This document shows positions 3,882-46,563 of a stretch of DNA of 64,000 bases, in pieces. The translations under genes were made by a program, and so were the position numbers. This DNA comes from Spirulina sp. (lineage in GTDB: Bacteria > Cyanobacteriota > Cyanobacteriia > Phormidesmidales > Phormidesmidaceae), in NCBI GenBank assembly GCA_044070495.1, contig JBIPSI010000021.1, positions 26,833 through 90,832 on the forward strand, given 5' to 3'. Within the stretch, counting starts at the first letter, position 1. Each line of letters starts with the position of its first letter. The notes below the pieces were generated by a model, which worked only from the letters and a program-made list of their open reading frames with translations, was not told the DNA's origin and did no database searches.

Positions 3882-3979
3882 CGCTCAACCTAGCGCTAGG
3901 GAGTGGTCATCCGTGGGCAACCCATCGGCAGGGAAGGGCCTGCGCCAGCGGGATTCTTCTTGTTTCCTGACATTAAGCC

Positions 3980-4014
3980 TTGACAGGCTCCAGGAAAACG
4001 GTAACAATAAATAC
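3980..4014 (+). promoter_or_regulatory. Sigma70-type promoter with an overlapping NtcA box
   Basis: TTGACA at 3980-3985, 17 bp spacer, AACAAT at 4003-4008; GTA-N8-TAC (GTAACAATAAATAC) at 4001-4014 overlaps the -10. Confidence 0.65.
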
Positions 4015-4021
4015 AGAAACT

Positions 4022-4076
4022 ATCGTTCATCTCTAGCTTTAGAGACGGAAGTAGAGCTTAGCTCGAAGGAACGCGC
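4022..4076 (+). ncRNA. Glutamine riboswitch (glnA RNA motif)
   Basis: ATCGTTCA-[stem]-GACGGAAGTA-[GAGC/GCTC stem]-GAAGGAACGCGC matches the glnA motif; upstream of a DUF4278 gene. Confidence 0.9.
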
Positions 4077-4117
4077 CTCTGTTTATCCCCTTCAATTCAT
4101 TTAAGGAGAGGCGAATT

Positions 4118-4288
4118 ATGTCCCTAATGTATCGCGGTGTTGCCTACAATCCAGTTCAATCAGCGGTTACCGTGTCCGATGAAGTGATCGGTCGTTATCG
4201 TGGTGCCGTGGCCACTCGCCACCTGGCCAAAGGGGTCAAGGTTGACCACGCCCAAGGTCTCAAGTATCGCGGGGCGGTGGTTAGGTAG
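4118..4288 (+). CDS. DUF4278 small protein (56 aa; not in the ORF track)
   Basis: AAGGAG RBS, then MSLMYRGVAY...GRYRGA...LKYRGAVVR*, with the triple YRG motif of DUF4278. Confidence 0.88.
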   Translation: MSLMYRGVAYNPVQSAVTVSDEVIGRYRGAVATRHLAKGVKVDHAQGLKYRGAVVR

Positions 4289-4357
4289 GCTTTTGTCCGG
4301 CCATTTCCCTTGGCCTCCTAGATTGAAAATCTTGAGGTCGCTCGCAGTATCTCGTTC

Positions 4358-4384
4358 AAGCACTCCCCAGGGGGTGCTTTTTTT
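4358..4384 (+). terminator. Intrinsic terminator
   Basis: AAGCACTCC/GGGGTGCTT hairpin followed by a T-tract. Confidence 0.75.
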
Positions 4385-4421
4385 GCGATAGGCTTGAAGG
4401 CATCCTCCTTGGCGGTATGAC

Positions 4422-5893: not shown

Positions 5894-6682
5894 ATGGCAG
5901 AGCGCCTCCAAAAGCTGCTGTCCCAGCATGGTCTGGCCTCTCGACGCAAGGCCGAAGAGTGGATTGTGGCTGGGCGGGTCACCGTGAATGGTGTTCCGGC
6001 CCACCTCGGTCAAAAGGTCGATCTCGCCCACGACCAAGTCTGCGTTGACCAGCGACCCCTAGTGCCTCAGCAGCGTCCCCAGTCCCATTATTTCTTGCTG
6101 AACAAGCCCCTAGGGGTAGTCTCCACCTGTGCCGATCCAGAGGGTCGTCCCACTGTCATCACTATCCTGCCATCCTCCCTACACACCCTGGGGCTGCATC
6201 CCGTGGGGCGGCTGGATACTTACTCCACCGGGGCCTTAATTCTGACTAACGACGGCGACTTTACCTATCGCCTCACCCACCCCAAGCATGACGTTGCCAA
6301 GCGCTACCAGGTGCGGGTGGCGGGAAAGGTCTCCCCAGAAACCCTAGCCACCTGGCGACGAGGAATTCCCCTTGATGGTCGCCCGACCCGCTCTGCGGAG
6401 GTAGACATCCTAGGCACCCCCACCCCCCATCACACCGATCTGGCGATTACCCTGTGGGAGGGACGCAATCGCCAAATTCGCCGTGTGGCCGAGGCCCTGG
6501 GGCATCGCGTATTGCGCCTTCATCGCCTATCGGTGGGGCCAGTCCACCTAGACAAGCTAAAAGGGGGGGCTTACCGATCTTTATCCGCAGCCGAAATTAG
6601 GGCATTATTAGCTGAGTCAGAGGTTCAACCGACAAGCCCACAGTTACCCTCACAGGTTCTCGTTGGTACGTCGCCGTTTTAG
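5894..6682 (+). CDS. rRNA pseudouridine synthase (RsuA/RluB family)
   Basis: S4 domain ERLQKLL..SRRKAEE; VGRLD catalytic motif; EGRNRQIRR. Confidence 0.92.
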   Translation: MAERLQKLLSQHGLASRRKAEEWIVAGRVTVNGVPAHLGQKVDLAHDQVCVDQRPLVPQQRPQSHYFLLNKPLGVVSTCADPEGRPTVITILPSSLHTLGLHPVGRLDTYSTGALILTNDGDFTYRLTHPKHDVAKRYQVRVAGKVSPETLATWRRGIPLDGRPTRSAEVDILGTPTPHHTDLAITLWEGRNRQIRRVAEALGHRVLRLHRLSVGPVHLDKLKGGAYRSLSAAEIRALLAESEVQPTSPQLPSQVLVGTSPF

Positions 6683-7473
6683 TGAATGCTCCCTGTATGA
6701 AGACAAAACAGTTGGTTGATTCTAACCGCTTGTACCAAACCCAGCTCATTGAACTGGGCAAATTGTTACAGGCCGCTCGGCAAGACCAAGGCTACTCCTT
6801 GGAATCCATGGCGAGCAAAACCCTGATTCGGGCCAGCTTGCTGACGGCTATCGAACAGGGCAACCTCGATGGTTTGCCAGAACCGGTTTACATCCGGGGA
6901 CTGCTGCGTCGCTACGGCGATGCCCTCAACCTGGATGGCGACACCCTGTCTAGCCAGTTCTTCGCGCCAGCGCAGCCTCAGGTTCGATCCTGGAAGGACT
7001 CCCCGGCGGCTCAATTACGTCCCCTCCACCTCTATGCGGCCTACTTTGTGGTGCTCATGGCGGCGGTCAGCGGGCTATCCTATCTGCTGAAGCAGACCGC
7101 CCCAGAAACCACGATGCTGCCGCCCCTAGATCCCCTGAACTCGGTGGAAACGCCTGCCACCCCCACCGCTCCAGCTATCCCTGAGGCACCCCCGGAGGTG
7201 GCGGCATCGAATGCTCCCATTGCCGTCAAAACCACCCTGACGGCCCAATCTTGGATGCGCGTCACCACCGACGGCAGCACTACCTTTGAAGGAATTTTGC
7301 AGCCGGGGGACAGTCGCCTGTGGACGGCGGATCAAGCCCTTACCATTCGGGCAGGCAATGCGGGGGCGGTGGTGATTAGCTACAACAATCGGCAGGCCGA
7401 GCCCCTGGGCCAGCCTGGCATGGTGAAGGAAGTGACCTACTCCTCCGACAACATGGTCAGTCTCATCCCCTAG
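6682..7473 (+). CDS. RodZ-like HTH/TM/DUF4115 protein
   Basis: LPEPVYIRGLLRRYGDAL HTH; TM segment; SWMRVTTDG...RAGNAGAV. Confidence 0.85.
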   Translation: MNAPCMKTKQLVDSNRLYQTQLIELGKLLQAARQDQGYSLESMASKTLIRASLLTAIEQGNLDGLPEPVYIRGLLRRYGDALNLDGDTLSSQFFAPAQPQVRSWKDSPAAQLRPLHLYAAYFVVLMAAVSGLSYLLKQTAPETTMLPPLDPLNSVETPATPTAPAIPEAPPEVAASNAPIAVKTTLTAQSWMRVTTDGSTTFEGILQPGDSRLWTADQALTIRAGNAGAVVISYNNRQAEPLGQPGMVKEVTYSSDNMVSLIP

Positions 7474-7608
7474 GTTCCGTCTTGCCTGAGGCGATGAGGG
7501 CGAAGCTTGGAGGTGAAGGCTGTATGGGTTGGGTTACTTACGCTCAGTCCCTGGCCCAAAGGGGAGAGAGGTAGAACCGTTTGGGGCTTCCTTCTCCCTC
7601 CCCAGGGG

Positions 7609-8463
7609 CTAGCTAGGGTTGGGTTGAACCGCCTCACCACTGAGGTTGTAGATGAAAGGAACGTTGCTTCCTTGCCCATCGCCAATCACCAGCACCTGCG
7701 GCACCAAAGCTCCACCAGACTTCCAGGCTTCAATGGCCTCCTTTTGCAGCACTAGCTGACCACCTTGGGCTTTCAGGGTTTCGGCAATCAGGCGCTGGGC
7801 TTCGGCGCGGCCCTTGGCTCGGTTAACTTCCGCCTGGGCTTCCTGTTCGGCTTCCTGGGCGATGTAGACCGCTCGGCGGGCGCGCTGTTCGGCAATTTGT
7901 TTGTCTTCTACGGCCTTGGCAAACTCCGTTGAGAAGGTCAGGTCTACTACGCTCGTATCCAGCACCAGGATGCCGTACTTGGCAAGCCGGGAGGTGAGGG
8001 CGTCGTCAAAATCTTGCTTGAGTTCTGCCCGCTGGGTGATGGCTTCCTCAACGGTGCGGCGGGCAGCGGCAATTTTGAAGGACTCCTGGGTTTGGGGAGC
8101 CACAATTTTAGACACCAGGTTTTCTAGGGTGCCCTGGGTGCGGCGAATGTTGACCACCTCGGTAGGGTCTAGGCGAAAGTTAATGGCAAACCGCCCTGAC
8201 AGATCCTGCAAGTCCTTGGTGGAGCTTTGGGCTGGAACCTCAAATTTTTGCACCGTCACATCGTAGACATCCACCGTGGACACCAGGGGCGGTTTCAGAT
8301 GCAAGCCCTCCAGCAGGGCACCGTCCTGGGCCTTACCTAGGATGCTCAACACCCCCGCCTGACCGGGGTTAATAATCACAAAGCTACTGGTAAGCAGCGC
8401 CAATCCCACAATGGCCAACACACTCAGGATGACAGGCTGCCAGTTTGCCGAAGTTGATTTCAA
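7609..8463 (-). CDS. Prohibitin/SPFH domain protein
   Basis: EGLHLKPP, STKDLQ, FAKAVEDKQIAEQ. Confidence 0.9.
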   Translation of the reverse strand: MKSTSANWQPVILSVLAIVGLALLTSSFVIINPGQAGVLSILGKAQDGALLEGLHLKPPLVSTVDVYDVTVQKFEVPAQSSTKDLQDLSGRFAINFRLDPTEVVNIRRTQGTLENLVSKIVAPQTQESFKIAAARRTVEEAITQRAELKQDFDDALTSRLAKYGILVLDTSVVDLTFSTEFAKAVEDKQIAEQRARRAVYIAQEAEQEAQAEVNRAKGRAEAQRLIAETLKAQGGQLVLQKEAIEAWKSGGALVPQVLVIGDGQGSNVPFIYNLSGEAVQPNPS

Positions 8464-8840
8464 GGGATCCTCTCCACACCACGTTGCCCTTCTACCGTAC
8501 CGAGGATTGCCCTAAATCGCCGGGATTCTTTAGGAATACTCACGATTGACCGTAGACACGGGTGAGCTACCCCCGCGATTTGCCTTAGCAGGTAGGGGAC
8601 AGGATTGGCTGTCAGACCTTAGGCTGTGGGACGGAAGGCGAGCCTAGGATCGGTTGGCTAGGTTCCTGTAAAACGTATGGCAGACTGCCAAAGTCATCCA
8701 TCTTGGTATGCCAGCCTACAAAAGCTTAAGGGATTATTGGTCGGAGCTTAACCTAGCTAAGGGAGTCCCTTAACGTTGGGTGCTGAAGATAGAGACGGGC
8801 AGCCATTGTGCTGGGCATCGTCTAGGCCAAAGTCTCGGCC

Positions 8841-9572
8841 ATGCCTAACCCTAGGCCGCATCGGCTGATCCTTCGGCGCATTCTGGGTATTTCTGTGTCT
8901 ATTGCCCCGGCTATTTCCTACGCAGCCACCCTTGGAGAGCAGTCCCAGCGAAGTTTTATTGATTTGCTGGAGCAGCTTTATCGAGAGCGATCCCTGATGG
9001 CTTACCCCGCAGGGCAGGCGATTCCGTTAAAGCCAGAGGAGGTTTTGGTGGTGTGCCGGGGGGTGGTTCAACTGTTCACCATCCAGCCAGAGGGCAGCGA
9101 AACCCTGCTGGGACTGGCGGGGCCATCCATGCCCATGGGCCTTCCCCTCACCCTGGTGGATCCCTACTGGGCGACGGCCCTCACCGATGTTGATGTGCTG
9201 GTGTTGCCCTTCGGCGAAATTGAGGCTTCCCCGGTGTTGATGACGGGGGTATTTCGGAATCTTACCCTGCGTCTTCAGCAAACCGAAGCCTGGTTGGCAC
9301 TATCGGGCAAGCGTTTGGTGGCGGATCGGCTGCGGCACTTTTTGGTACTCCTCGCCAAGGACTTTGGCCAGGTAGAACCCCAGGGCATTCGGATTCCCCT
9401 GAAACTTACCCATCACCAACTGGCCACCGCCATTGGCACCACCCGCGTCACCGTCACCCGCCTGCTGAAAGAGTTTAAGACAGAGGGCTGGCTGACCCTA
9501 GACCAGCGCCACATCATTCTCAATACTGGAAACCAGTCTTTGGCAACCCAATTGCTCGACCCCCGGTTTTAG
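8841..9572 (+). CDS. Crp/Fnr family transcriptional regulator (CysR-like); start uncertain
   Basis: LTHHQLATAIGTTRVTVTRLL HTH; cNMP-like N-terminal domain. Confidence 0.88.
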   Translation: MPNPRPHRLILRRILGISVSIAPAISYAATLGEQSQRSFIDLLEQLYRERSLMAYPAGQAIPLKPEEVLVVCRGVVQLFTIQPEGSETLLGLAGPSMPMGLPLTLVDPYWATALTDVDVLVLPFGEIEASPVLMTGVFRNLTLRLQQTEAWLALSGKRLVADRLRHFLVLLAKDFGQVEPQGIRIPLKLTHHQLATAIGTTRVTVTRLLKEFKTEGWLTLDQRHIILNTGNQSLATQLLDPRF

Positions 9573-9610
9573 GCAGGATCTAAACCAAGTCCAGGTTTCA
9601 ATGACGGGCA

Positions 9611-10444
9611 TTAAATCACGTCGGCAAAGGTGCGTTCCATGCGGCGGAAGTAGAGAATTCCGGTGAAGAGCAGGACTAACACCAGCAGCAGGGACAGCAA
9701 AAATCCAGGCCAAAAGAGTTGCACATCGCCGCCAATGATGGCCCAACGAAAGCCGTCGATCACCCCCACCATGGGGTTGAGGGAGTACAGCATTCGCCAG
9801 CGGTCGGGCACGATGGCGCTACTGAAGCCCACGGGCGAAATATACAGACCAAACTGCACCAAAAACGGCACTACATAGCGAAAGTCGCGGTACTGCACAT
9901 TGAGGGCCGCTAGCCACAGCCCCGCCCCCATGGCCGCCGCAAAGGCAATGGCGGTAAACAGCGGCAGGGTGAGGATACGCCAGGAGGGCACCGCGTTGTA
10001 CCAGGCCATCAGCCCCAGCAGGATCACGCCGGAAATCAAGAAGTCCACAAAGCTAACAATCACGGCACTGGTAGGCACCACCAATCGGGGAAAGTACACC
10101 TTAGAAATCAGGTTGGCGTTGGTGATCAGGCTGTTGCTGCATTCCGAGAGGGCATTGGCAAAAAACTGCCAGGGCAGCATGGCAGAAAACACCAGGATTG
10201 GGTAGGGGGCATCGCCTTCACTGGGCAGGTTAGCCAAACGGCCAAACACCACCGTAAACACCACCATGGTTAAAAAGGGTCGAATCAGCGCCCAAGCCAC
10301 CCCCACCACGGTTTGCTTGTAGCGCACCAAAATATCTCGCCAGGCCAGGAAGTAAAACAACTCCCGGTAGCGCCACAGATCGCGAAAGTACTGGGCCTCG
10401 GTACGGCCAGCTTCAATCACCAGTTCAGGAATGGGTTCAGCCAT
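9611..10444 (-). CDS. ABC-2 polysaccharide export permease (Wzm-like)
   Basis: DLWRYRELFYFLAWRDILVRYKQT, SKVYFPR, RRMERTFADVI; ATG at 10444. Confidence 0.9.
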   Translation of the reverse strand: MAEPIPELVIEAGRTEAQYFRDLWRYRELFYFLAWRDILVRYKQTVVGVAWALIRPFLTMVVFTVVFGRLANLPSEGDAPYPILVFSAMLPWQFFANALSECSNSLITNANLISKVYFPRLVVPTSAVIVSFVDFLISGVILLGLMAWYNAVPSWRILTLPLFTAIAFAAAMGAGLWLAALNVQYRDFRYVVPFLVQFGLYISPVGFSSAIVPDRWRMLYSLNPMVGVIDGFRWAIIGGDVQLFWPGFLLSLLLVLVLLFTGILYFRRMERTFADVI

Positions 10445-19898: not shown

Positions 19899-20912
19899 GT
19901 GGCTAATTTAGTGCCCACCCAAGTCGAGCAACTTCAGCGCATCGGGGATCATCTTCGCCAAGTGCGGCAGGAACAAGGGCTGTCCCTAGACATTCTGGCC
20001 AACCAGATTTTTATTCGCCCCGCTCTGTTGCAAGCGTTGGAAACTGGGCGAGAGGAGCAGTTGCCAGAGGCGGTTTTTATTCAGGGATTTATCCGTCGCT
20101 ATGCGGAAGCCTTGGGCTTGGATGGCAAGGCGATTTCCCAGGAGTTTGTGGTGTCGCCGCCCCCCATGGTGCCCAGCCCCGATCTCGTCACGCCAGCGGT
20201 GAGTCATCGTCCTGCGGCCCCCGCTCCAGCCCCTCAGTCCACTCCGGCTCCGGCCCCTATTCCGGCCCCCACTCCTGTGGCCAAGGCCGCCCAAGAACCA
20301 GCCCCGACCTCGGTTGTCCAGCCAGAGCCAACTCCAGCATCGGAAGCAGCTAGGGCCACGGCACCATCTCGGCCTGTCTCCACCGTCCAAAATGCTCCCC
20401 TGACTAATCCGTTTCCCCAGGCGGCTGCCATGGCCGAGGAACGGCGTAGCGGTGGTCTATCCCTGTGGCTGGCCTTAGTGGGAGCGGTGATTTTGATTGG
20501 CGGTGGACTAGGGCTATGGTTGGGTCGCGGGTCGAGTCCTCAAACCGCGACACCGCCCGTGGAGGAACCTACCCCAACCGAGCCACCCCCGACCGCCGAG
20601 GCCCCCGTGGCCGCTGAGCCGGAACCGGAACCCGCAGCCCTAGAAGCGCCGATTGTGGTGGCCGTTCGCCTCAGTGAGCGCTCCTGGCTGAGCGTGGTGG
20701 CCGATGGTCGCACGGTCTATGAGGGCACCTCCGACGAGGGCTATGAAGAAACCTGGACCGCCGAGAATTCCCTGGTGTTTACCACGGGCAATGCAGGGGG
20801 CGTTTCCCTGTCGTTTAATGGCGAAAATCCGGTGGTGCTGGGCAACTCTGGGGCCGTACGTACCCTCAACCTCACCCCAGACTCCGATGCCGCTGATCTA
20901 GAAGCACCCTAG
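19899..20912 (+). CDS. Second RodZ-like HTH/TM/DUF4115 protein
   Basis: LPEAVFIQGFIRRYAEALGL; Pro/Ala linker; TM segment; SWLSVVADG..TGNAGGV. Confidence 0.85.
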   Translation: MANLVPTQVEQLQRIGDHLRQVRQEQGLSLDILANQIFIRPALLQALETGREEQLPEAVFIQGFIRRYAEALGLDGKAISQEFVVSPPPMVPSPDLVTPAVSHRPAAPAPAPQSTPAPAPIPAPTPVAKAAQEPAPTSVVQPEPTPASEAARATAPSRPVSTVQNAPLTNPFPQAAAMAEERRSGGLSLWLALVGAVILIGGGLGLWLGRGSSPQTATPPVEEPTPTEPPPTAEAPVAAEPEPEPAALEAPIVVAVRLSERSWLSVVADGRTVYEGTSDEGYEETWTAENSLVFTTGNAGGVSLSFNGENPVVLGNSGAVRTLNLTPDSDAADLEAP

Positions 20913-21996: not shown

Positions 21997-22674
21997 CTAG
22001 CTCGGAGGCTTGAGATAAAGGGTACGCTCGGCCTCACGGCGACGCACCAGCCCCGGCAGCACTTGGCCATCGGCGTAGACCCAGCGGGGAAATTCGTTGG
22101 CGGCCCCGGCAAAGTCTCCGGCGTTGTGTTTGCGGAGCAGGGTGGAGTTGCGGTAGGCGTTGAGTCCCACATTAAAGGCAAAGGACACCATGGCCGAGAA
22201 CTGGTTTTCGTGGGTGGTCACGGTCAACGCCTGGGAGACCCCACGCTCAAACAGATCTAAATCCTGCTGAAGGATGGCTTCGGCTTCGGCGACGGTGATC
22301 ACCATGCCGGGGTAAACCTGGGGGGGGCCAGCCATGCTGGTGTGGCCATAGCCAATCGTCCACACGCCGACGGAATCTTGGTAGGCGGTGGTGCGTAGGC
22401 CCTCGAAGTGTTTGATCATGGCCAGCCCTTCGGCATTAATTTGCCCCGTCACGGGGGGGGGCTGCCAGGGTTCGGGTTCCGGTGCTCCGGTGGCGAGGGA
22501 GATGGTCATGGCGGTGGGGGCATCGGCGCGGGCAAACCAGGCTTCCATGCCCGTGATGTCCGCCACCTGTTCCTTGGGGTTAGAGGCGGAGGGGGATTTC
22601 GTGATGCGGGAAATCCACACGCCCCCCTGCATCAGGTACATCGCTATATCGGTTTCTTTAATCCAGGTGCCCAT
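21997..22674 (-). CDS. GH24 (phage-type) lysozyme with an unrecognised 69-aa N-terminal domain
   Basis: FEGLRTTAYQDSVGVWTIGYGHT (E-x8-D-x5-T), VSFAFNVG, LPGLVRRREAE. Confidence 0.92.
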   Translation of the reverse strand: MGTWIKETDIAMYLMQGGVWISRITKSPSASNPKEQVADITGMEAWFARADAPTAMTISLATGAPEPEPWQPPPVTGQINAEGLAMIKHFEGLRTTAYQDSVGVWTIGYGHTSMAGPPQVYPGMVITVAEAEAILQQDLDLFERGVSQALTVTTHENQFSAMVSFAFNVGLNAYRNSTLLRKHNAGDFAGAANEFPRWVYADGQVLPGLVRRREAERTLYLKPPS

Positions 22675-22685
22675 CGGTTTTCCTC

Positions 22686-24659
22686 CTAAGCGGGGCCAGT
22701 GCCGTCGTAGTTCCAGCGGGCGCGATAGCCCCTGGCATCAATGTGGGTGAAGGATCGGGAACTGGCCAGCCCTCCTTGGCCGCCCCACCAAGCATCCAAA
22801 TCGGCGTAGACATCGTAGGGATGGCGACCGGACACCACAAAATCCACCGCATCCCCCAGCAAATGACGCGACTGGGAGGCCCCTCCCACCGCCGCATTGG
22901 TGGCCGGATCACGATACCAGGAGTTGATGGTGATGGGTTTGCCGTAGCGTTTGCGGATGTCCTCCAGGGCTTTGGCGATACGCAGGATGCCGTAGATCAC
23001 ATCAGCACTGGTGGGGCGGCGATACTGCCCGGTGCTGGCGTTGACATGGAGCGCCTCGCCCCAGGTGAAATTTCCTTTCTCGCCGTGCTGGGTCGTCCAG
23101 TAAATGGGGTCGTTGGAGTAGTAGGTGCCCGTAAACCCCGGAAACCGGAGGGGAATGCCACGATTACCGGGGGGTGGCTTGGGCTGGCCTTGGTCGTTGG
23201 GGTTATTGCCAATTTCGGTACCGATTAGGTAGATATCCGGCACGTAGCAGTACCAGGTATTGCGGTTTTTGACCCCCAGAAAGGCCCCCCTAAAGGACAC
23301 CCGCACATGGTTTTTCTCCGGCTGGGCGTAGGAGGATACCTCTAAGACGGTATTGGCCTTCACCAAAACCTTGTCCTCTTCGGGCAGATCGCTAGAGAGG
23401 GCGGTGCTGGTTTTGAACACCGTATCCCCCAAGACCTGAAGCAGTTGCCGCTGACCCACAATGCGCACATGGGGATTGTAGACATACCAGGTATCGAGTT
23501 CGTCGGGGCCGAGGGTGGTATCGGCAAGGCGCACCTTGGCATGATCCGCCGCCGCTGGTAGGTGACCGATCAGGTTGAACTGAGTGTTGACAGGCACGGC
23601 CACCTTGCCCTCCTCCGGCAGTTCCGATGACGGAATCGGCTCTTCTTTAAAGACCGTGTTGGCTACCACCGTGAGGGTGATGTCGGACAGCAGCTTGGTG
23701 TCTTGGGTGTTGATATACCAGGTGGTAGCCTTGCCATCCCCCAGTTCTGGCTTCACCAAGTCGATCAGCCAGCGGTCGCTGCCTTGGTCAATGTAGTACT
23801 GAATATCCAACACCTGCCCCTGGGGCACCGCCACCTTTTGGTTGTCTGGCAGCATTTCCGGTAGGTCGGGGCTGAGGGTGAACACCGTATCGCGCAGGGT
23901 TTCAATCTGGAGGCCATCGTGGGGGCGGGGCACTTCGCCGCCGTCGGTACTGGCGCTGGCATGGAGGTTGTAGACGTACCACAGGGTGTTGTTGTTGGGG
24001 CCAAGGGTGGTGTCCGCCAGCTCGATCAGGGTGTGATTATCGGCGGCGGGCCGAAAGGACTTTAGCTTGAAGGTTTGCGCCTCAGCCACAAACACCTTGG
24101 CGCTGTTGGGCAGGCTGGTGGAAGGTTTGGGTTCCTGCTTAAACAGGGTGTCGCGGGTGACGGTGAGGGTGGCGTCGGTGCCCAGGCGGGCATGGAGGCT
24201 GTAGACATACCACAGGGTACGGTTCCCCTCGCCCAGGGAGGGTTCCGCCAGTTCTATCCGCCAGTGGTCGCTGCCGCCATCGGTGTAGTAGCGCAGGGCG
24301 AGCTGAGTGCCCCGCTTCACTGTCACCTTTTCCGCCGATGTTAGTTGGCTAGACTGCACGGGCCTCACCTTAAAGACCGTGTCGGTGGTGACCAACAACT
24401 GATTATTGTCGGGAATCACCAACCCATCCCCTGGCCCTGGTGGCTTTGGAGCCGGTTCCGGTTCTGGTTCCCCCGTACCCACCGAAAAGGTCATCCCCCT
24501 CGGTCGGTCGCTCCGGGCAAACCAGGCTTTCATGGCTGCCACATTGGCCACTTGTTCCTTGGGGTTGGTGGTGGAGGGACGTTTGGGAATCACCGCAATA
24601 TAGGTGCTCCCAGACATCAAGTAAATGGCCTGATCGGTTTGTTTAACCCAGGTGCCCAT
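22686..24659 (-). CDS. Peptidase M15 (D-Ala-D-Ala Zn peptidase-like) with the shared N-terminal domain and five ~75-aa repeats
   Basis: INSWYRDPATNAAVGGASQSRHLLGDAVDF...FTHIDARG (H-x6-D...HxD). Confidence 0.88.
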   Translation of the reverse strand: MGTWVKQTDQAIYLMSGSTYIAVIPKRPSTTNPKEQVANVAAMKAWFARSDRPRGMTFSVGTGEPEPEPAPKPPGPGDGLVIPDNNQLLVTTDTVFKVRPVQSSQLTSAEKVTVKRGTQLALRYYTDGGSDHWRIELAEPSLGEGNRTLWYVYSLHARLGTDATLTVTRDTLFKQEPKPSTSLPNSAKVFVAEAQTFKLKSFRPAADNHTLIELADTTLGPNNNTLWYVYNLHASASTDGGEVPRPHDGLQIETLRDTVFTLSPDLPEMLPDNQKVAVPQGQVLDIQYYIDQGSDRWLIDLVKPELGDGKATTWYINTQDTKLLSDITLTVVANTVFKEEPIPSSELPEEGKVAVPVNTQFNLIGHLPAAADHAKVRLADTTLGPDELDTWYVYNPHVRIVGQRQLLQVLGDTVFKTSTALSSDLPEEDKVLVKANTVLEVSSYAQPEKNHVRVSFRGAFLGVKNRNTWYCYVPDIYLIGTEIGNNPNDQGQPKPPPGNRGIPLRFPGFTGTYYSNDPIYWTTQHGEKGNFTWGEALHVNASTGQYRRPTSADVIYGILRIAKALEDIRKRYGKPITINSWYRDPATNAAVGGASQSRHLLGDAVDFVVSGRHPYDVYADLDAWWGGQGGLASSRSFTHIDARGYRARWNYDGTGPA

Positions 24660-24699: not shown

Positions 24700-24735
24700 G
24701 GTTATTAGTTATTGGTTATTGGTTATTGGTGATGG
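24700..24735. repeat. Heptamer tandem repeat (GGTTATT-like); related array near 40833-40865
   Basis: GTTATTAGTTATTGGTTATTGGTTATTGGTGATGG. Confidence 0.7.
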
Positions 24736-24854: not shown

Positions 24855-25544
24855 TTACCAGGCTTTGGGTTCAAAGGTAGCATCGTTGAGAATTCGCATG
24901 GTTTCCCCCGATTGGGCTAGCACAAACAACCCCTGGCGATAGGCATAGCGGTCGGCCCCATGGTCAAAGGCAATCCCAGCCACCGCCCCATAGAGCTGTC
25001 GTTCAGCGTGTTCTGGAAAAAACTGGTGAAATTGCTGCAAATCTTCCACAAATTCTTTCACATCGTCTACGCTAAGGCTGCTTTTCACTTCCACCGCCAA
25101 AATGTGATTTTGATTCTGCACCAGCACATCAATTTCTAAGGTCTCGCCATCGCGAATCTTCTGCACCCGCTGGCTCACCTGATGCACCGGAATGCCCCGA
25201 TCTAAAAACAACGTTTTGCAGGCCGGAGCCACCATATTTTCGACAAACAACCCCCACTTGCCGCCCAACGCCCCCAACTGCTGGTTTAGTTGACGACTGG
25301 ATTCAGCCATATCCCGTCGAGTTTCCGCAATGATCCGATCCAGATTCTGGCTCGATTCCTGAAGTCTACGATCTGTCTCCTGAAATTTGCGATCCGTTTC
25401 CTGAAACTTGAGGTCGGTTTCCTGAAACCTACGAGCAGTCTCCTGAAACTTGAGGTCGGTTTCTTGAAACATGCGCTTCGTTTCTTTTTGCGATTCTGCC
25501 AGTTCAGCCAGTAACCGCCATACATCGTCTGCCGTGGTCGCCAT
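24855..25544 (-). CDS. DUF3782-like coiled-coil plus PD-(D/E)XK protein
   Basis: ETDLKFQ heptad repeats; GGKWGLFVE; EIDVLV..AVEVKS; YAYRQGLFVLAQSG. Confidence 0.85.
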   Translation of the reverse strand: MATTADDVWRLLAELAESQKETKRMFQETDLKFQETARRFQETDLKFQETDRKFQETDRRLQESSQNLDRIIAETRRDMAESSRQLNQQLGALGGKWGLFVENMVAPACKTLFLDRGIPVHQVSQRVQKIRDGETLEIDVLVQNQNHILAVEVKSSLSVDDVKEFVEDLQQFHQFFPEHAERQLYGAVAGIAFDHGADRYAYRQGLFVLAQSGETMRILNDATFEPKAW

Positions 25545-31687: not shown

Positions 31688-31972
31688 ATGAGTGACCTAA
31701 CAGTAAGCCTAAGTCTACCAAGGGATTTACTAGGAACCTTAGATGTTTCCGAATCACAATTAGCTGACCAAATCCTAGAGCTTTTGGCCCTGGAGTTGTT
31801 TCGTCAAGGGCGCATTTCTACGGGCAAGGGAGCGGAGTTACTCAGAATTTCCAAGGCAGATTTTATCCATCTTTTAGACCGTCACCAAATTCCCTATTTC
31901 ACCATCACTTCAGCGGAATTAGAAATGGAGGTCGCCACCGTAGAGGCATTACTCAAACCATCAGGTCGATGA
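31688..31972 (+). CDS. UPF0175 family putative antitoxin
   Basis: LALELFRQGRISTGKGAELL; overlaps the downstream PIN gene (ATGA). Confidence 0.85.
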   Translation: MSDLTVSLSLPRDLLGTLDVSESQLADQILELLALELFRQGRISTGKGAELLRISKADFIHLLDRHQIPYFTITSAELEMEVATVEALLKPSGR

Positions 31973-32454
31973 TTGTTGTCTCTAATGCTGGGCCACTCAT
32001 TGCCTTAGCCAGGATTGATCATTTAGCCCTAATTCAAGGTCTCTATGGCAACGTACTGATTCCGAGGGCCGTTGAACAGGAGGTCGTTGGTATGGGCTTC
32101 AATCGCCCTGGAGCTAGGGAAATCAGCACCGCAACCTGGATTCAAGTCGCCGACGTATCCGATTCCATTGCGGTTAGTCTTTTACGAGAACGGCTAGATG
32201 CAGGCGAGAGTGCGGCGATTGTCCTGGCCCTTGAACAACAGGCTGACCTATTACTTATGGATGAAGCCAGAGGACGACGCATGGCCCAATCCAAAAACCT
32301 CGCCCATACTGGAACGGTAGGAATTTTGGTGCTAGCCAAGCGTCAGGGGTTACTCAATGCCGTTACGCCTGCCCTAGATCAGCTCATCACCACTGGATTT
32401 AGGATGAATGATGACTTGAGAGAAACCGCCCAAAAGCTCGCTGGCGAATCGTGA
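31969..32454 (+). CDS. DUF3368 PIN-domain putative toxin
   Basis: MIVVSNAGPLIAL, LDAGESAAI, LLMDEARGR, GTVGIL. Confidence 0.88.
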   Translation: MIVVSNAGPLIALARIDHLALIQGLYGNVLIPRAVEQEVVGMGFNRPGAREISTATWIQVADVSDSIAVSLLRERLDAGESAAIVLALEQQADLLLMDEARGRRMAQSKNLAHTGTVGILVLAKRQGLLNAVTPALDQLITTGFRMNDDLRETAQKLAGES

Positions 32455-33837: not shown

Positions 33838-36279
33838 TTACCCCAAATCGGTGACCACAATGCCGGGGAGGGCATTGAGTTCCTGATCGCTGAGGGGGTC
33901 GCCGCCGTAGATAGAGGCCATCCGGGCCAAGGCTCCGGTGAAGGCCGCATTGTAGTCTAGGGCCACTTCGTTGGTGAAGTAGTTGCTGCGGACATCTTCA
34001 TAGGCGAAGTCGTTGGGGGCCGAGAGACCACCCACCAGACCGCCATAGAGGATGTGGTCGTTGGGGGCGGGGTCGTTGATGTTAGTGGTGCCGGAGGCGG
34101 CGCGATGGTGGGGGTTGAGCGGATAGTTTTCGCCAAAGCCAATCATGTAGCTGGCGTTGCGCGGATTATCTCCCAACATGTAGTTGATTTGGCTAGTGGC
34201 AAAGACATCGTACCGACCGTTGGGATCGTTGACGGTATCGGCATAGACCCCAGCTAAGAAGGCGGTGTTGGCGGCATAGCGCAGGGAACCCCATTCGCTC
34301 AGCCATGCCAGCCCCCCTTGGGTGTAGCGCACGCTGCCCCCCGGTAGCCAGCTATTCAGCCAGGTTTCTACGTCGGTGCGGTAGCGGCTGTCATTGGTTT
34401 CCTGGGCCAGCAAAATCGCGGTGCCGTAGGACTTGTCATCCCAGGATTGCGTCCAGCCGGGGCCAATGCCTCGATACTCGGCTTGGGCCTTGGCCAGATA
34501 GCTGGTATCGGTGGAACCCTTGGCTTCTAGGGCTTTGTGTAGCCAGGTGGCCCCCCAGGCCAGTTCGTCTTGGTAGCCGCTCCAGGAATTGTAGTACTGG
34601 GCGCTGGCCGGAATGGAACTGGAGTAGGTGCCCCGGTAGGTATCGGCGAAGGTATAGAGCTGTTGGGCGTTGGTGAGCAGGGTGTCGGCATAGCCCGCAT
34701 CCACCGACCGAAACAGGATGGAGGCCGAAGCCAGGGCCGCTGCCGCCTCTGCCGCCAAATCACTGCCGGGACGGTTGGGGGTGATGGCAAAGGCGGGTCG
34801 CGCCATGGTCATATTTTCTGGGGCACCCCAATAGCTGTGGTCGAGGGCACCATCTCCCACCTGCCCCCAAAAGGCCTGGGTGACACCATTTTGGCTGACA
34901 TGGGCCTTGAGGATGTAATCCGTGCCCCACTTAATCGCCTCCAGGGCTTCATCCAACTGACCCATTTGGGCATAGGCATCGCCATATTCCACCACGCCCC
35001 AGCCCAGCATCGTCATAGAAGCCGCCATGGGGAGGCCAAATTTCACATGGTCGCCCGCATCGTAGTAACCACCGCTGAGATCGCGCCCCACGCTGGCTCC
35101 GTCGTTGAGGGCCGAGTCTCCCCGCCAGGCAATGCGGTTGTCGTCCGGCAGTGCGCCAGACCGTTGGGCCTCATAGAACAGGAAAGACTTTTGCAACGCC
35201 TCACCATAGTTAAACGGCCCGGACATCTCAGGCCCAGGGGCGGGGTCGGGAATAGGATCTGGAGTCGGGTCAGGTGTGGGATCCGGAATAGGATCTGGAG
35301 TCGGGTCAGGCGTCGGGTCAGGCGTCGGGTCAGGAATGGGATCTGGGGTGGGTTCGGGCGTTGGATCAGGCGTCGGTTCGGGGGGCGGTTCTACTACGCC
35401 ACCGGACTGACCCACGGTGACACCATTTAACTCATAGCTTGTCGGCGCTACGGCCTCGCCATTGAGCCTCGTAGCCTGCACGCCAAAGGTAACTTTGCCC
35501 CCCGCTGGAATGGTTTGGTTCCAGCCCAGGTTTTCTACGGTAATGCCGTCTTGGGTGCTGAGTAGCTTGGCATTCCAGATATTGTCAACGCGGAAATTGG
35601 CATCAAAGGCTAGCGTCCAGCCCGAAATGGCCGTATTGCCCAAATTCTCGATCACAATATTGGCGACAAAGCCCGATCCCCAGTCGTTATCGATGTCGAA
35701 GTTAACCGTCACCGCTGGGCCAGGCGCTGGCGCTGGCGTGGGCGCAGGGGTTGGATCTGGCGTGGGCGCAGGGGTTGGATCTGGCTCTGGTGTAGGTTCC
35801 GGTTCTGGCGGCGGCTCTGGAGTGGGTTCTGGTTCAGGTGTAGGCTCCGGTTCAGGTGTAGGTTCCGGATCAGGTGTAGGTTCAGGATCAGGTGTAGGCT
35901 CAGGAGTAGGCTCCGGCTCAGGAGTAGGCTCCGGTTCTGGAGCGGGTTCCGGTGCTGGCGTGGGAGTCCCCGCTACGGGTACACCATTTAAAGTGAGATT
36001 GAAAGGGGACACCGTGACCCCAGGGGAATTTTGGCCATTAAAGCCAAAGGTAATGCTCTGCCCAGGGGCCAACCCGCCATTCCAGACAGCATTGGTAATC
36101 ACAAAGCTCCCGTTCGTCCCCTGCTGAAGCGTGGCGCTCCACAGGTTGGTAATTTGAAAGGGCGCATCAAAGGCAAGTTCCCACTGGGTCAGGGGTTCAG
36201 TACCGAGGTTGGTGATCGTTACGTCGGCGGTAAAGCCTGTCCCCCAGTCGTTTCTAATAATAAATTTCACTGATGGCAT
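33838..36279 (-). CDS. GH9 endoglucanase with two CBM2 domains and Pro/Thr/Glu linkers
   Basis: NDWGTGF..W..NLW CBM2 x2; [32 protein letters not shown]. Confidence 0.93.
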
Positions 36280-36596: not shown

Positions 36597-37228
36597 CTAG
36601 GTTTGGCTATGGGCCGCAAACACATCCCGAAATGGCCCCAGGAATTTTCGTTCTGGCGACCAATCGCTAATGGCAAACACAACGTCGGAGAAAGCTCCGC
36701 TGTAGGTGGTTTCTAGGGCCTGCCGAAAGTCCATCGCGGTACGGTGGGGATCAATCGACAGAGCACTTCCTCCTGTGCCCTGGCTCCATTCAGAAAGCCG
36801 CCGCCCGGAGTGAGTCCGTTGGCAAAATTTAGGGCCAGGGGTCGCAATCCACGCTCTACCAGCCGTTGGGATGCGCCCAGCGTGGTCTCATTGGTGACTT
36901 GGATGTGAGTTTCCTGGAATGAGGCTTGCCCCTGACTTGGCAAGGTTGCCTCTGGGGGAATGCTGATTTTGGCTGCACAGGCCGCTTGCACCGCTTCGCG
37001 CCAATCAATGGTTTGTCTGGCCTGAGTCCTATAAAACCCGGTGCGGGCTGCTTCTGCCGCCGACCTTCCTAGGCTGGCGGCAACCTTCCTAGGAAGGGTT
37101 AACTCCTGCTGTCGAGTGGCGGCCATCCATTCGGAATCGAGACAAGGATGTATACGCACTGTGCTCACCATTCTTCTGGGTATTTCCATGGTTCCATTAG
37201 CCGTCGAGTGCAGACTCTGGTGGGTCAA
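36597..37228 (-). pseudogene. TIGR02452/DUF2263 (bacterial PARG-like) pseudogene with an internal deletion and frameshift
   Basis: LNFANGLTPGGGFLNGARAQEEVLCR switches near 36755 to another frame reading DPHRTAMDFRQALE..FSDVVFAISDWSPERKFLGPFRDVF..*. Confidence 0.8.
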
Positions 37229-40200
37229 TCGCAGACTTGCCGGATATCGTCGCTGAGATCGGGATGGTGGGTGAGGTAGTCTTGCACCCAGTCGCAGGCA
37301 TAGGCTAAGGGATCGACCGTCATCACCGCTTCTAGATCCCAGCGAATCAGCCGTTCGTCGGCACTAGCGGAAAACAGCCATCGGCCATCGGGGCTAAAGC
37401 TAAGGCGATACACCGCCGCATTGTGTTTATCCAGGATGGCGATGGGGTCGCCCGTCAACGTCCAGAGCCGGATGCTTTTGTCGCCCCCAGCGGAGGCCAA
37501 AAACGGCACCCCCAGGATCGCATCAGCCGCCGGGGGAGCAAAGGTGACATCCCAAATAATATCGGTGTGCCCTTCTAGCACAGCGACCTCCTCTCCCCGA
37601 TCCGCATCCCACAGGCGCACGGTGCGATCTTCGCTGGCGGAGGCCAGGTAACGGCCCTCGGCATCAAAGGCTAGGTCGCGAATGTGGGCGGTATGGCCTA
37701 CCAAGGTTTGTTGGAGGCTGTTGGTGGCCGGATCTAGAAATTGGATGGCGTTGTCGGCGTTGCTGTAGGCCAATAGAGACCGCTGGGGATGCCAGACCAG
37801 GCTGGAGATTCCCAGGCGATCCGCACCAGAAGGCTGACGATCTTGGCCATCGAGCTGCCAAACCTGAAGATTCGACTGCATCCCCGCCGAGGCAATGGTC
37901 TGCCCATCGGGGGAGAAGGTGACTCGCGCCACGTTGGGCTGGTGCCCTGGGTAGGTGAGGAGGGGGGTGCCATCGGGTTGCCAGAGCCGAATGGTGCCGT
38001 CCATGCTGGCGGAGGAGAGGATTTGGCCATCGGGGCTAAACACCACATCGATGGCGGGGGCACGGTGGGCCGGAATGGCGGCTAACGGCGTGCCGTCCGT
38101 CTGCCACAGTTTAACCTGGCCATCCACCCCGGAGGAGGCCAGCAGATCCGCTGTGGGGCTGTGGGCCACCCCAATAATCGGCGCATCGTGGCTACCGATG
38201 ACGTTATAAAAGGGGGATGCGATCCGCCAAAGGATGGCCTCGTGGTTATCGGGCAGGCCCGACGACACCATAAATTCTCCATCGGGGCTGAGGTCAATGG
38301 AGCGTCCGGCGGCGGCAATGCCTTCGTAGGCAGGCAGAGACTCGCCGTTGCGCTGCCAAAACCGCACCTCATGGTCAAGACTGGTGGACACAAGCCGTTG
38401 CCCATCGGCGAGGTAGCGCACATGGGTCACCGAGGACTGGTGCCCTTCCAAACGGGTGATGATCTGCCCCGCCCGATCCCAGAGCACAATGGTTTTGTCG
38501 GAACTGGCGGAGGCCATTTGATCGCCATCGGGGCTGAACGTAACATGGGCCACGGTGGCGCGATGGCCGCTGAGGGTATTGAGCAATCGGCCCTCGGTGG
38601 GATGCCACACCTTGAGGGTTTGGTCGGCACTGCCAGAGACCAGCACCTCCCCATCGGGGCTGAAGGCGACTGTTCTAATCATGGCATCGTGGGCCTTGAT
38701 GTGGTGGAGCAGGGTGCCATCCCGCCGCCAAAGCTGGAGGTTGCCCCGGATATCCCCCGCCGCCACCCGTTCCCCATCGGGACTAAAGGCCAAGCTCAAC
38801 ACCCGATTCGCTCCGGTTTCCCAGGTCTCTAGCAGATCCCCGCTGCTGGTATCCCAAAGCTTAATGGCCCCGTTAACATAGCCCGCCGCCAGTTGATCCC
38901 CCGTGGGGCTATAGGCGATGCTCAACGCCTCCTGATCAGCCTCGCTGTCGTCCGGGGTGGCCAGGGTGTGGCCCAGGGAACCATCGGGATTCCAGAGCTT
39001 GATGGTGTTGTCTTTGCTGGTGGAGGCGATTTGGCTACCGTCGGGGCTGTAGGCCACGGCTCGAATTTCCCCGCTGTGACCAGAGAAGCGGTTGACCTCG
39101 TTGATGCCCAAAATAATTTTCTTCAGCACCCGCTCAACCTCGGCTTGCAGGGCGGGGTCGGGCTGGCGCAGACGGGCCAATTGTCGCTGGGCACGGATGG
39201 CTTGCAGCAGGGCATCCAATCGATTTTTGGAGTCGAACCAGCCCTCAGCGGAGGCGGAGAGGGCCTTAACCTCACTGCTTCGGGCCATCTGCTCACTCTG
39301 GCTAGCCCGCCCAGACTGGTACCAGGCCAAGCTGCCTAGCCCACTGGCCAGCACAAACCCAATGCCTAGGGTGCCTAGCAGCCACCGTTGCAGGTGCGTC
39401 ACCCGCTGGGCCTGCTGGAGTTGGGCCGCCATGGCTTGGCTGCGTTCTGCAGCGAGGGCCAGCCGCATAGCCTGACGATCAAACTCCACCGAGGCGGCTA
39501 GAAACTGATAGTCATCATCGCTGAGCCGCTTTCCCTGCGCCCAATCCTGGGCATCTTGCAGGGCTTGGCCCCGCAGCAACCGCGAGGCATCGGTGCGCTG
39601 AGAATCAATCCAGGCTTGGATGGCCTGGGAATAGGGCCGCCAGTGGTTCAGATGGTGGGCCACCCAGGCTTCATCGAAAATGGCTGAGTAAATGGCGTTT
39701 TTAACCCGCAAATGCCCCTCCGCCTTCACCACCAGGCCCGACAGCAGCAACTCCGTTTCCTCCGCCGATTGGTCGAGGGGCACTTGGCCCTGCTGTAGGA
39801 TGCGCTGGTATTGGCCCAGCACCCGACCCATGCCGTCGGTGTGGCGCAGCAGGCGGTCGCGGATGGTGCGAAGGTGCTCCGGTTCGTCCTGGGTTTCCCA
39901 GTGGTTAATAATGTGATCCAACACCCGTTGGCGCACCCAGTCGGCCTCCTGCCCCGCTGGCACCGCAATCTGGCTCCCCTGATCCGCATGGAGCTGCCAG
40001 ATGTAGGCACACAGCTTTTGGGTAAGAAAGGGCTGTCCCCCGGTCCAGTCGAGGATGGCCTGCAAAATGGCCTCGGCCTGGGTAATGGCGGGTTCTAGAC
40101 CCGCTAGGAGCGGCCCACATTCTGACCCTTCAAAGCCATTGAGAGGAATGGCCTGCCCGATGTTGAACGGTGTGCGCTGGCGATCCTGAATTAAATCGGC

Positions 40201-40794
40201 GGGGGTGGCCACGCCAAAAATCGCAAAGGTGATCCGCCGATACCTAGGATCCACCGCCCGCTGGTTGTAGCAGAACCGAATCAGGGCAAAGAAGTCATCC
40301 AGGGAAAAATCCACCCCCAGAATGCTGTCGATTTCGTCGATGAAGATAATAAAAGTTTGGTCGGGGCAGGGTTCCAGCAGTCCCTCTCGCAAAAAGCCGT
40401 GGAGCTTTTGCACCGGAGGCACATCGCCCTGGTTCTGCCACCAGGTTTTGTAGTCAAACTGCCCAACCAGGCCAAACCCCCGCCACAGATCCGCCACCAC
40501 GCCGCGATACCACTGGGCCGCCGTCACCTGGTGAGACCCAAGGCTGGTGATGTCTAGGGTGGCGCAGCGATAGCCCTCAGTCTCTAGCCGCCGCAGGGTG
40601 TGCACCATCAGGGAGGACTTGCCCATCTGACGGCTGTTGAGGACGTAGCAAAATTCCCCAGCGATCAGCGCTTGGTAAAGCTGGGCATCCGCCTGACGGT
40701 AGACATAGCTGGGCCGATCTGGACTGAGACTTCCCCCAACTTGGTAGGGCGGCAGTGGGCTAAGGGAGGAGGGGGGGAGGGGGAGGCTTTTCAC
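37225..40794 (-). CDS. AAA_35 (STAND-like) NTPase with TM segment and WD40 repeats
   Basis: YQVGGSL, LNSRQMGKSS, IFIDEID, WTGGQPFLTQ; many GH...W(D/N) WD40 repeats. Confidence 0.9.
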   Translation of the reverse strand: MKSLPLPPSSLSPLPPYQVGGSLSPDRPSYVYRQADAQLYQALIAGEFCYVLNSRQMGKSSLMVHTLRRLETEGYRCATLDITSLGSHQVTAAQWYRGVVADLWRGFGLVGQFDYKTWWQNQGDVPPVQKLHGFLREGLLEPCPDQTFIIFIDEIDSILGVDFSLDDFFALIRFCYNQRAVDPRYRRITFAIFGVATPADLIQDRQRTPFNIGQAIPLNGFEGSECGPLLAGLEPAITQAEAILQAILDWTGGQPFLTQKLCAYIWQLHADQGSQIAVPAGQEADWVRQRVLDHIINHWETQDEPEHLRTIRDRLLRHTDGMGRVLGQYQRILQQGQVPLDQSAEETELLLSGLVVKAEGHLRVKNAIYSAIFDEAWVAHHLNHWRPYSQAIQAWIDSQRTDASRLLRGQALQDAQDWAQGKRLSDDDYQFLAASVEFDRQAMRLALAAERSQAMAAQLQQAQRVTHLQRWLLGTLGIGFVLASGLGSLAWYQSGRASQSEQMARSSEVKALSASAEGWFDSKNRLDALLQAIRAQRQLARLRQPDPALQAEVERVLKKIILGINEVNRFSGHSGEIRAVAYSPDGSQIASTSKDNTIKLWNPDGSLGHTLATPDDSEADQEALSIAYSPTGDQLAAGYVNGAIKLWDTSSGDLLETWETGANRVLSLAFSPDGERVAAGDIRGNLQLWRRDGTLLHHIKAHDAMIRTVAFSPDGEVLVSGSADQTLKVWHPTEGRLLNTLSGHRATVAHVTFSPDGDQMASASSDKTIVLWDRAGQIITRLEGHQSSVTHVRYLADGQRLVSTSLDHEVRFWQRNGESLPAYEGIAAAGRSIDLSPDGEFMVSSGLPDNHEAILWRIASPFYNVIGSHDAPIIGVAHSPTADLLASSGVDGQVKLWQTDGTPLAAIPAHRAPAIDVVFSPDGQILSSASMDGTIRLWQPDGTPLLTYPGHQPNVARVTFSPDGQTIASAGMQSNLQVWQLDGQDRQPSGADRLGISSLVWHPQRSLLAYSNADNAIQFLDPATNSLQQTLVGHTAHIRDLAFDAEGRYLASASEDRTVRLWDADRGEEVAVLEGHTDIIWDVTFAPPAADAILGVPFLASAGGDKSIRLWTLTGDPIAILDKHNAAVYRLSFSPDGRWLFSASADERLIRWDLEAVMTVDPLAYACDWVQDYLTHHPDLSDDIRQVCD

Positions 40795-46494: not shown

Positions 46495-46563
46495 AAACAG
46501 CCCTCCATACGCAAAGAATGATCGAGGAATAGACTCAAAATCTATCCCCTTTCCCATCATAAA

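Follow-up and report, generated by a model that had tools for sequence, protein, structure and literature searches.

Modular endolysins of Gram-negative hosts usually carry N-terminal binding domains, and some lysins oligomerize, among them PlyC and the enterococcal and clostridial lysins that have extra free binding domains. Type 10 (holin/hydrolase-dependent) secretion is represented by the M15 endopeptidase ChiX of Serratia and the muramidase TtsA of Salmonella. The cargo signals of contractile injection systems and the trafficking domains of polymorphic effectors place a conserved N-terminal head on variable enzymatic tails. In the portions of two published papers drawn on here, effector-associated adaptor domains (EADs) are adaptor-like terminal domains in conflict systems of multicellular prokaryotes, for which homotypic coupling has been proposed (Kaur, Burroughs, Iyer, and Aravind, 2020; PMC7159879), and TftA of Nostoc punctiforme is the product of a morphogene that combines Amidase_3 and glucosaminidase domains, acts in filament remodeling, and is conserved specifically in filamentous cyanobacteria (PMC10710843). 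Here we describe a small domain shared by two adjacent genes, for an M15 peptidase and a GH24 lysozyme, in a 64,000-nucleotide (nt) stretch of a Spirulina sp. genome (the window; assembly GCA_044070495.1, contig JBIPSI010000021.1). The domain is modular and is combined with many families of peptidoglycan hydrolases.

The two genes, encoding 657 and 225 amino acids (aa), were found co-oriented and 11 nt apart, as an earlier note on this DNA had described. Its count of 42 identical columns among 69 at the two N termini, without gaps, was reproduced; BLASTP aligned the N termini with 37/63 identities (E=1e-23 in a single comparison), far beyond chance, and aligned nothing else in the two proteins. 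Both proteins begin MGTW(V/I)K(Q/E)TD, and each domain copy is followed by a Pro/Glu-rich linker (EPEPEPAPKPPGPG and APEPEPWQPPPVTG) and then by domains unrelated to those of the other protein. The features of the locus are as follows.

22686..24659, minus strand: M15 peptidase gene (657 aa; new domain, Pro/Glu linker, five repeats, Peptidase_M15_3), without signal peptide
24471..24659, minus strand: copy 1 of the new ~63-aa domain (residues 1-63 of the M15 protein)
24411..24470, minus strand: Pro/Glu-rich linker of the M15 protein (residues 64-83, read from the translation)
23235..24404, minus strand: five ~72-aa repeats of the M15 protein (37-42% identical to the first repeat)
22737..23012, minus strand: Peptidase_M15_3 catalytic domain (residues 550-641, Pfam; PHROGs endolysin families also match)
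22675..22688, minus strand: TAG stop of the M15 gene and 11-nt spacer, with GGAGG at 22682-22686
21997..22674, minus strand: GH24 lysozyme gene (225 aa; new domain, linker, Phage_lysozyme), without signal peptide
22486..22674, minus strand: copy 2 of the new ~63-aa domain (residues 1-63 of the lysozyme), the copy used for the structure model
22027..22413, minus strand: GH24 (Phage_lysozyme) catalytic domain (residues 88-216, Pfam)

The Shine-Dalgarno sequence GGAGG overlaps the M15 stop codon and lies 7 nt before the lysozyme ATG; together with the 11-nt gap (22675-22685), this makes the two genes a tightly coupled operon and suggests that they are co-expressed. A promoter and terminator scan returned nothing above shuffled expectation. 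Both catalytic domains scored above their Pfam cut-offs (PF08291, Peptidase_M15_3, E=2.8e-19, 69.7 bits against 23.2; PF00959, Phage_lysozyme, E=1.3e-49, 168.1 bits against 22.3), and the lysozyme also matched the PHROGs endolysin family phrog_7 (E=2.3e-67). The zinc ligand motif of M15 peptidases is H-x6-D plus a later H, and the catalytic triad motif of GH24 enzymes is E-x8-D-x5-T. Reading the translations against these motifs, we found SRHLLGDAVDF and FTHIDARG (H-x6-D and a later H-x-D) in the M15 domain and HFEGLRTTAYQDSVGVWT (E-x8-D-x5-T) in the lysozyme, in agreement with the earlier statement that the catalytic residues are intact. Judged likewise by reading, neither protein has a Sec, Tat, or lipoprotein signal, a hydrophobic stretch, or a twin-arginine motif. 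In neither frame does a start codon lie further upstream, since the open reading frames (ORFs) were called from the earliest start codon following a stop. The five repeats of the M15 protein had no Pfam match and no match among PDB sequences (best E=1.1); their ESM Atlas neighbors (feature score 0.92, TM<0.4) give a hint of SH3b-like wall-binding repeats. In the 195-nt region upstream of the M15 gene, the heptanucleotide GGTTATT (plus strand) is repeated in tandem, with 4.4 copies at 24700-24730.

Residues 1-69 matched no Pfam family at an E value of ≤0.1, no NCBIfam family at an E value of ≤1, no PHROGs family, and no PDB sequence. By sequence profile the domain belongs to none of the known wall-binding families (SH3b, LysM, PG_binding_1, and others), and PADLOC defense families matched neither the domain nor either full-length protein. 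No published description was found in the literature, which was looked at mostly by title and the start of the abstract. The shared stretch is a genuine, previously undescribed, modular domain outside the curated libraries, as the earlier note had proposed in calling it unrecognized.

The source genome (5.3 Mb, 74 contigs) contains four strong copies (E values of ≤6.7e-22) among seven matches at an E value of ≤10: the two in the window, one in a second GH24 lysozyme (contig C10), and one in a second M15 peptidase (contig C27). The three other matches (E values of 0.006 to 0.31) are noise. The two window copies are 59% identical to each other and up to 94% identical to orthologues, so adjacent copies are not each other's closest relatives. 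A word-indexed search of proteins of 123 to 394 aa recovered 43 proteins, 42 of which are GH24 lysozymes from Nodosilinea, Leptolyngbya, or unnamed cyanobacteria and one of which carries Amidase_2. For longer proteins, 415 clusters matched a 14-copy profile at an E value of ≤1e-3 among the 7999 candidates with the most common words, which were the ones scored. A pattern-seeded scan of one genome per prokaryotic species, run with the 10 closer rows of the domain alignment, confirmed 204 places; 73 of the best 80 were titled as cyanobacteria (Nodosilinea, Leptolyngbya, Phormidesmidales, Leptothoe, Tildeniella, Trichocoleus, and others) and 7 as "uncultured bacterium."

In an even sample of the class, the domain was present in 71 of 401 genomes, which sets aside the possibility that it exists only as the one recent duplication in the window. 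It was found in 36 of 39 genomes of the window's own family, in seven other families (9/17, 11/39, 6/39, 3/39, 2/39, 1/4, and 1/8), and in 1 of 40 genomes from eleven further families pooled, and in none of the remaining sampled families. Phylum-wide and 1.84-billion-protein searches used a profile of 230 positions that included lysozyme and amidase columns, and only rows starting at profile positions 1 to 3 were counted; genomes outside the class in the phylum-wide sample gave no match beginning at the domain. The census of fusion partners and taxa is incomplete. Regarding a phage origin, a pattern search of IMG/VR gave no confirmed match, and tblastn against 50,697 phage records with a window copy or an internal-type copy gave no match at an E value of ≤1, a result compatible with divergent phage versions. 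As part of the best explanation, the domain is most likely specific to cyanobacteria, mainly to thin filamentous lineages.

Every identifiable fusion partner was a peptidoglycan hydrolase. Seven families scored above the Pfam cut-off: Phage_lysozyme, Peptidase_M15_3, Amidase_2, Amidase_3, Peptidase_M23, Glucosaminidase, and SLT. Below threshold, leads were obtained for GH19 (E=0.0023), a DPBB lytic transglycosylase (E=0.0022), an M74/MepA-like peptidase with PG_binding_1 (E=7e-4 to 0.025), and Tlde1 (20.7 bits against a cut-off of 30.1), and some partner proteins also carry PG_binding_1-like or LysM modules. A partner of ~290 aa in three loci (L182 to L184) matched no family. An apparent alpha/beta hydrolase partner (L185) is doubtful, the match spanning half of the model only, and was left uncounted. 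No signal peptide was seen among the domain proteins whose sequences were read.

A domain-only hidden Markov model found the domain in 190 of 302 collected proteins, a set biased by the manner of its collection. The first copy starts within residues 1 to 30 in 187 of the 190, usually at residue 1 or 2. Other arrangements also occur. In P0052, P0053, and P0057 the domain lies at about residues 146 to 220, preceded by Glucosaminidase and followed by Amidase_2 and, in some of these proteins, also by LysM and M23. In a family of ~420-aa proteins (P0067, P0195 to P0197, P0199, and P0203; loci L155 to L157), three tandem copies, each followed by a PEPEP-type linker, precede Amidase_2. The M15 peptidase and the lysozyme are fused in a single ORF of 893 to 1008 aa, with the second copy internal, in 7 of the best 120 clusters and in locus L174. 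Stand-alone domain ORFs of ~63 to 90 aa adjoin domain-enzyme genes in L155, L156, L161, and L162; a further stand-alone copy in L167 lies at a contig end and has no domain-enzyme neighbor shown. Counted from the class table, 24 of the 71 positive genomes have at least two copies within ~3 kb or in one ORF. Adjacent domain genes often differ in bond specificity, as in the window (M15 and GH24), L158 and L159 (amidase and DPBB-like), and L170 and L171 (M15 and GH19-like).

Two loci show further features. In genome G579, the C-terminal end of the fused M15-lysozyme of L174 (5206-8229, minus strand) consists of a stretch rich in Ser and Thr and then a hydrophobic segment, VAAVTAGVAAIAGLAFGAYNLF; this segment, which may anchor the protein in a membrane, is the only one of membrane type observed among the members. 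In L163, a 459-aa Glucosaminidase-Amidase_2 protein (3471-4847, plus strand), encoded beside a domain-Amidase_3 gene, carries, between the catalytic domains, another kind of repeat of ~55 aa in two copies; the new-domain profile did not match this repeat, which may be a second unannotated accessory module.

We modeled the domain with AlphaFold2. A 70-row alignment, thinned to at most ~80% identity and with 20% to 86% identity to the target, gave a compact beta-rich model with a mean predicted local distance difference test score (pLDDT) of 94.6 and a predicted template modeling score of 0.78; only two aligned sequences gave a pLDDT of 43.8. The model has strands at residues 3-7, 11-16, 19-28, 36-38, and 56-58 and a helix at 40-47. 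The most conserved residues are W4, T8, Y13, L14, M15, and W46, and the region from 30 to 40 varies in length between subfamilies. Foldseek returned nothing significant against the PDB (best E=1.0), and its best hit among viral models (BFVD) had an E value of 0.38. VIA-align against 48,161 representative chains gave a best Z of 4.3, where unmatched models typically reach Z of 7 to 8; the endolysin binding domain 6ist (LysIME-EF1) scored Z 3.2, below the stated noise level. Feature matches in the ESM Atlas to small viral hypothetical proteins were weak (0.90 to 0.91) and below the bar for recognition. Ribosomal protein bS16 came first in a profile search of PDB sequences (E=0.022), and several bS16 chains aligned with Z of 3.5 to 3.9 (root mean square deviation [rmsd] of 3.0 to 3.5 Å over 53 to 56 residues). 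This likeness, found by two methods with scores under the tool's noise level and with no apparent functional link, is a weak topological lead, not homology. The domain is thus confidently predicted to fold, in a form that had no significant structural neighbor in these searches.

The two window copies were then compared by complex prediction, the M15 copy against the lysozyme copy, each with the 70-row alignment. The pairing score was 0.68 (runs of 0.67, 0.69, and 0.68), compared to 0.01 for the best control. In the tool's calibration this mark is reached by 116 of 157 solved complexes and 2 of 215 mismatched pairs, counts that are only rough with custom alignments. At least 89% of contacts were common to the runs, and partner pLDDT was at least 84. 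The predicted interface is symmetric, with residues 34-41 of one chain against 52-62 of the other. These results support pairing of the two copies, at the level of a structural model.

Taken together, these observations lead us to rank first, tentatively and with a little less than even confidence, the reading that the domain is a self-associating assembly or targeting module of signal-less, endolysin-like peptidoglycan hydrolases. The edge strand of one copy (residues ~36-40) would pair with the last strand (~54-58) of a second copy, and pairing would dimerize or oligomerize the enzymes that bear the domain. In the window operon, the peptide-cutting M15 enzyme and the glycan-cutting GH24 lysozyme would be joined as one lysin with two activities, and multivalency arising from pairing may help to hold the enzymes on the wall. 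Assembly is consistent with the fused M15-lysozyme ORFs, the clustered copies, the stand-alone and tandem copies, and the coupled operon; fusion of the two enzymes with both domain copies retained is a Rosetta-stone type of argument for it. Of the earlier note's interpretation, which offered hetero-assembly as one of several roles for an N-terminal address tag, hetero-assembly thus gained support from a controlled complex prediction, whereas the export or cargo-loading leader did not.

Several points weigh against self-association. Pairing is a model result. Because the two chains are paralogs (59% identical) modeled from one shared alignment, intrachain contacts (strand 36-38 with 56-58) could have been placed between chains. 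The most conserved residues lie mostly outside the predicted interface, and the length of the 30-40 region differs between subfamilies. A single copy is all that many genomes have (most of the 17 genomes of genus g157, for instance), so hetero-assembly cannot be an obligatory role. Five repeats with a possible wall-binding function (a lead only) are already present in the M15 protein, and a pure assembly module needs no bias toward the extreme N terminus such as that seen in 187 of 190 proteins. Binding, localization, and activity of the domain enzymes are predictions throughout.

Wall binding, which we rank second and regard as a realistic though unlikely sole explanation, does not exclude self-association, and the domain may serve in both roles. 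It would make the domain a plain substrate-binding module for a lineage-specific feature of the sacculus, with self-pairing an artefact or secondary. Fusion only to peptidoglycan-active enzymes through flexible Pro/Glu linkers, occurrence in N-terminal, internal, and three-tandem positions in restricted taxa, and near-invariant residues that are aromatic or hydrophobic (W4, Y13, and W46) all fit such a module, and the usual N-terminal placement of binding domains in endolysins of Gram-negative hosts was counted in its favor. However, the searches above gave no sequence match and no significant fold match to a known binding family (Foldseek E=1.0; VIA-align Z 4.3), the M15 proteins already have five other repeats and some partners have PG_binding_1-like or LysM modules, and stand-alone copies are less expected of a binding module.

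An export role fares less well, and we consider it improbable. It would make the domain an address tag for noncanonical export or cargo loading, a folded handle recognized by a translocator, a holin-type channel, or an injection machine. The absence of Sec, Tat, and lipoprotein signals from every protein examined, the start of the domain within residues 1 to 30 in 187 of the 190 collected proteins that carry it, and the resemblance to polymorphic effector families, in which a conserved head is joined to variable enzymatic tails, speak for it, and the source genome does have sheath and gp25 genes (three sheath and two gp25 matches). All of these matches are on other contigs, however, and of five single-contig carrier genomes, four (G017, G595, G448, and G038; completeness of 96% to 100%) lack both the PF04984 sheath and PF04965 gp25 families; the fifth (G510) has the markers. 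Contractile injection systems are thus excluded as the general partner, and the co-occurrence with injection loci that the earlier note suggested looking for was not seen, either across genomes or as linkage at a locus. No conserved transporter, holin, or injection gene accompanies the domain. A Pfam scan of the 44 largest other ORFs of the window found housekeeping or ordinary cyanobacterial families and no phage, holin, spanin, or secretion family, in line with what the earlier note had read from the sequence. Likewise, among 59 neighbor proteins at 14 divergent loci, Pfam showed no recurring holin, transporter, injection, or phage structural family, holins being diverse and small ORFs lying outside the scan; a few of the 14 loci hold further wall hydrolases. 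No immunity-like neighbor was seen, and PADLOC gave no match. Four results together weaken the idea of an N-terminal export leader with which the analysis began: the domain also occurs internally, in tandem, alone, and in fused enzymes; it is folded by prediction; no conserved machinery adjoins it; and co-occurrence with injection systems is missing.

Less probable still is a regulatory or auto-inhibitory pro-domain that would keep the hydrolase inactive in the cytoplasm until release or cleavage at the Pro/Glu linker. Lytic enzymes that lack signals and are stored in the cytoplasm need control, and a flexible linker follows every copy, but specific docking of a single small domain on more than seven catalytic folds that are unrelated to each other is improbable, and the tandem and stand-alone copies would be left unexplained. 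Weakest of all, and very improbable, is the reading modeled on the effector-associated adaptors of Kaur et al. (2020), by which the domain would be a homotypic coupler recruiting wall-degrading effectors to the sensor or NTPase of a regulated cell-death or conflict system of multicellular bacteria. This would suit a small nonenzymatic domain with often adjacent genes and predicted homotypic pairing in filamentous cyanobacteria. Against it, none of the copies found in an incomplete census belongs to an NTPase, vWA, STAND, or other core protein, the source genome has only its four hydrolase copies, the partners identified are wall enzymes or match no family, and adjacent copies are not closest relatives (59% identity within the operon and up to 94% to orthologues).

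If self-association is correct, a possible use would be concerted breakdown of the sacculus in a cell with a breached membrane, for example during the lysis of sacrificial cells or when filaments break, and release on such a breach may also be the enzymes' route to the periplasm. More speculatively, and with doubt, thin filamentous cyanobacteria may keep a cytoplasmic kit of signal-less enzymes (a glycan cutter, peptide cutters, and amidases), clipped together by a self-pairing domain of new fold and acting only when the membrane opens, for clean lysis of sacrificial cells, whether in necridia and filament breakage or as an altruistic death upon infection; as another possibility, the domain might be the handle of an export route for folded hydrolases. 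Peptidoglycan hydrolases of at least seven Pfam families are thus linked by this domain in ecologically important filamentous cyanobacteria. These enzymes have no export signals though their substrate lies outside the cytoplasmic membrane, which poses a testable question: how and when are endolysin-like enzymes deployed on the cell's own wall? Filament breakage, regulated cell death, release of biofilm matrix, and a noncanonical export route are possible settings. A self-pairing or wall-targeting module, if that is what the domain is, would be a practical tool to lyse, label, or engineer cyanobacteria.

The remainder of the window is ordinary chromosome, with NDH and ChpXY genes and genes for urease alpha, PheT, TatC, SelO, glycosyltransferases, and two RodZ-like proteins. 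The tatC gene is convergent with the lysozyme gene. The RodZ-like genes (HTH_25 and RodZ_C) lie at 6682-7473 and 19899-20912, both on the plus strand, the second ~1 kb from the operon and beside tatC. Just upstream of the operon, 24855-25544 (minus strand) encodes a DUF3782/PD-(D/E)XK-like protein with a repetitive, coiled N terminus and weak PADLOC matches to Csx1 and CARF_PDDEXK nuclease models (E=7.6e-5 to 2.4e-3). An 813-aa GH9 cellulase gene (33838-36279, minus strand) encodes two CBM_2 modules, with CBM_2 from residue 4 and stop codons just upstream of the gene; it is another extracytoplasmic-type enzyme without a signal peptide in the source genome. Genes for large WD40-repeat proteins lie in the window (36713-40794, minus strand, next to a gene for a microbial PARG) and immediately adjoin the domain gene pairs of L170 and L171. 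Because cyanobacteria have many such proteins, the adjacency is probably coincidence. In L161, a 969-aa LRR-Roc-COR-TIR protein (6919-9825, minus strand) is encoded beside a stand-alone copy and an SLT-type domain gene, the sole neighbor of a conflict-system type that was seen. Two likely toxin-antitoxin pairs are also present in the window, UPF0175 with DUF3368 (31688-32454, plus strand) and a PIN-domain gene with a small upstream ORF (45756-46560, minus strand).

Among described systems, the wall-binding domains of endolysins and autolysins resemble the new domain in being small noncatalytic modules, attached by flexible linkers to many kinds of hydrolase, sometimes repeated, restricted in taxa, and present as free copies beside the enzyme gene; some oligomerize, and self-association of the new domain is predicted. 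They differ in having no sequence or significant fold similarity to it, and the new-domain genes are chromosomal, lie in housekeeping contexts, and were not found in the phage collections searched. Type 10 secretion offers a parallel, since its M15 peptidase and muramidase genes also lie on the chromosome outside prophages and encode endolysin-like proteins without a signal peptide, but the new-domain genes have no holin-like neighbor by Pfam in the window or the 14 loci, and we know of no counterpart of the shared domain in type 10 systems. The cargo signals of injection systems share the conserved head, the variable tails, and the lack of a classical signal peptide, whereas the new domain is folded by prediction (pLDDT of 94.6), also occurs internally, in tandem, and alone, and shows no linkage to injection loci. 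TftA, as presented in the part of its description used here (PMC10710843), is likewise a multi-activity peptidoglycan hydrolase of filamentous cyanobacteria; it differs in architecture, is not shown there to carry the new domain, and serves as a precedent only for lineage-specific wall remodeling. The EADs, compared by the description in part of the source (PMC7159879) rather than by profile, differ in their defining copy on a core NTPase, vWA, or GTPase protein, which was not found for the new domain. They are similarly small and terminal, with several paralogs per genome and adjacent genes, and are common in filamentous cyanobacteria. By this analogy, and to the extent that the source was covered, among published ideas on homotypic couplers in filamentous cyanobacteria, the adaptor concept of Kaur et al. 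comes closest (PMC7159879).

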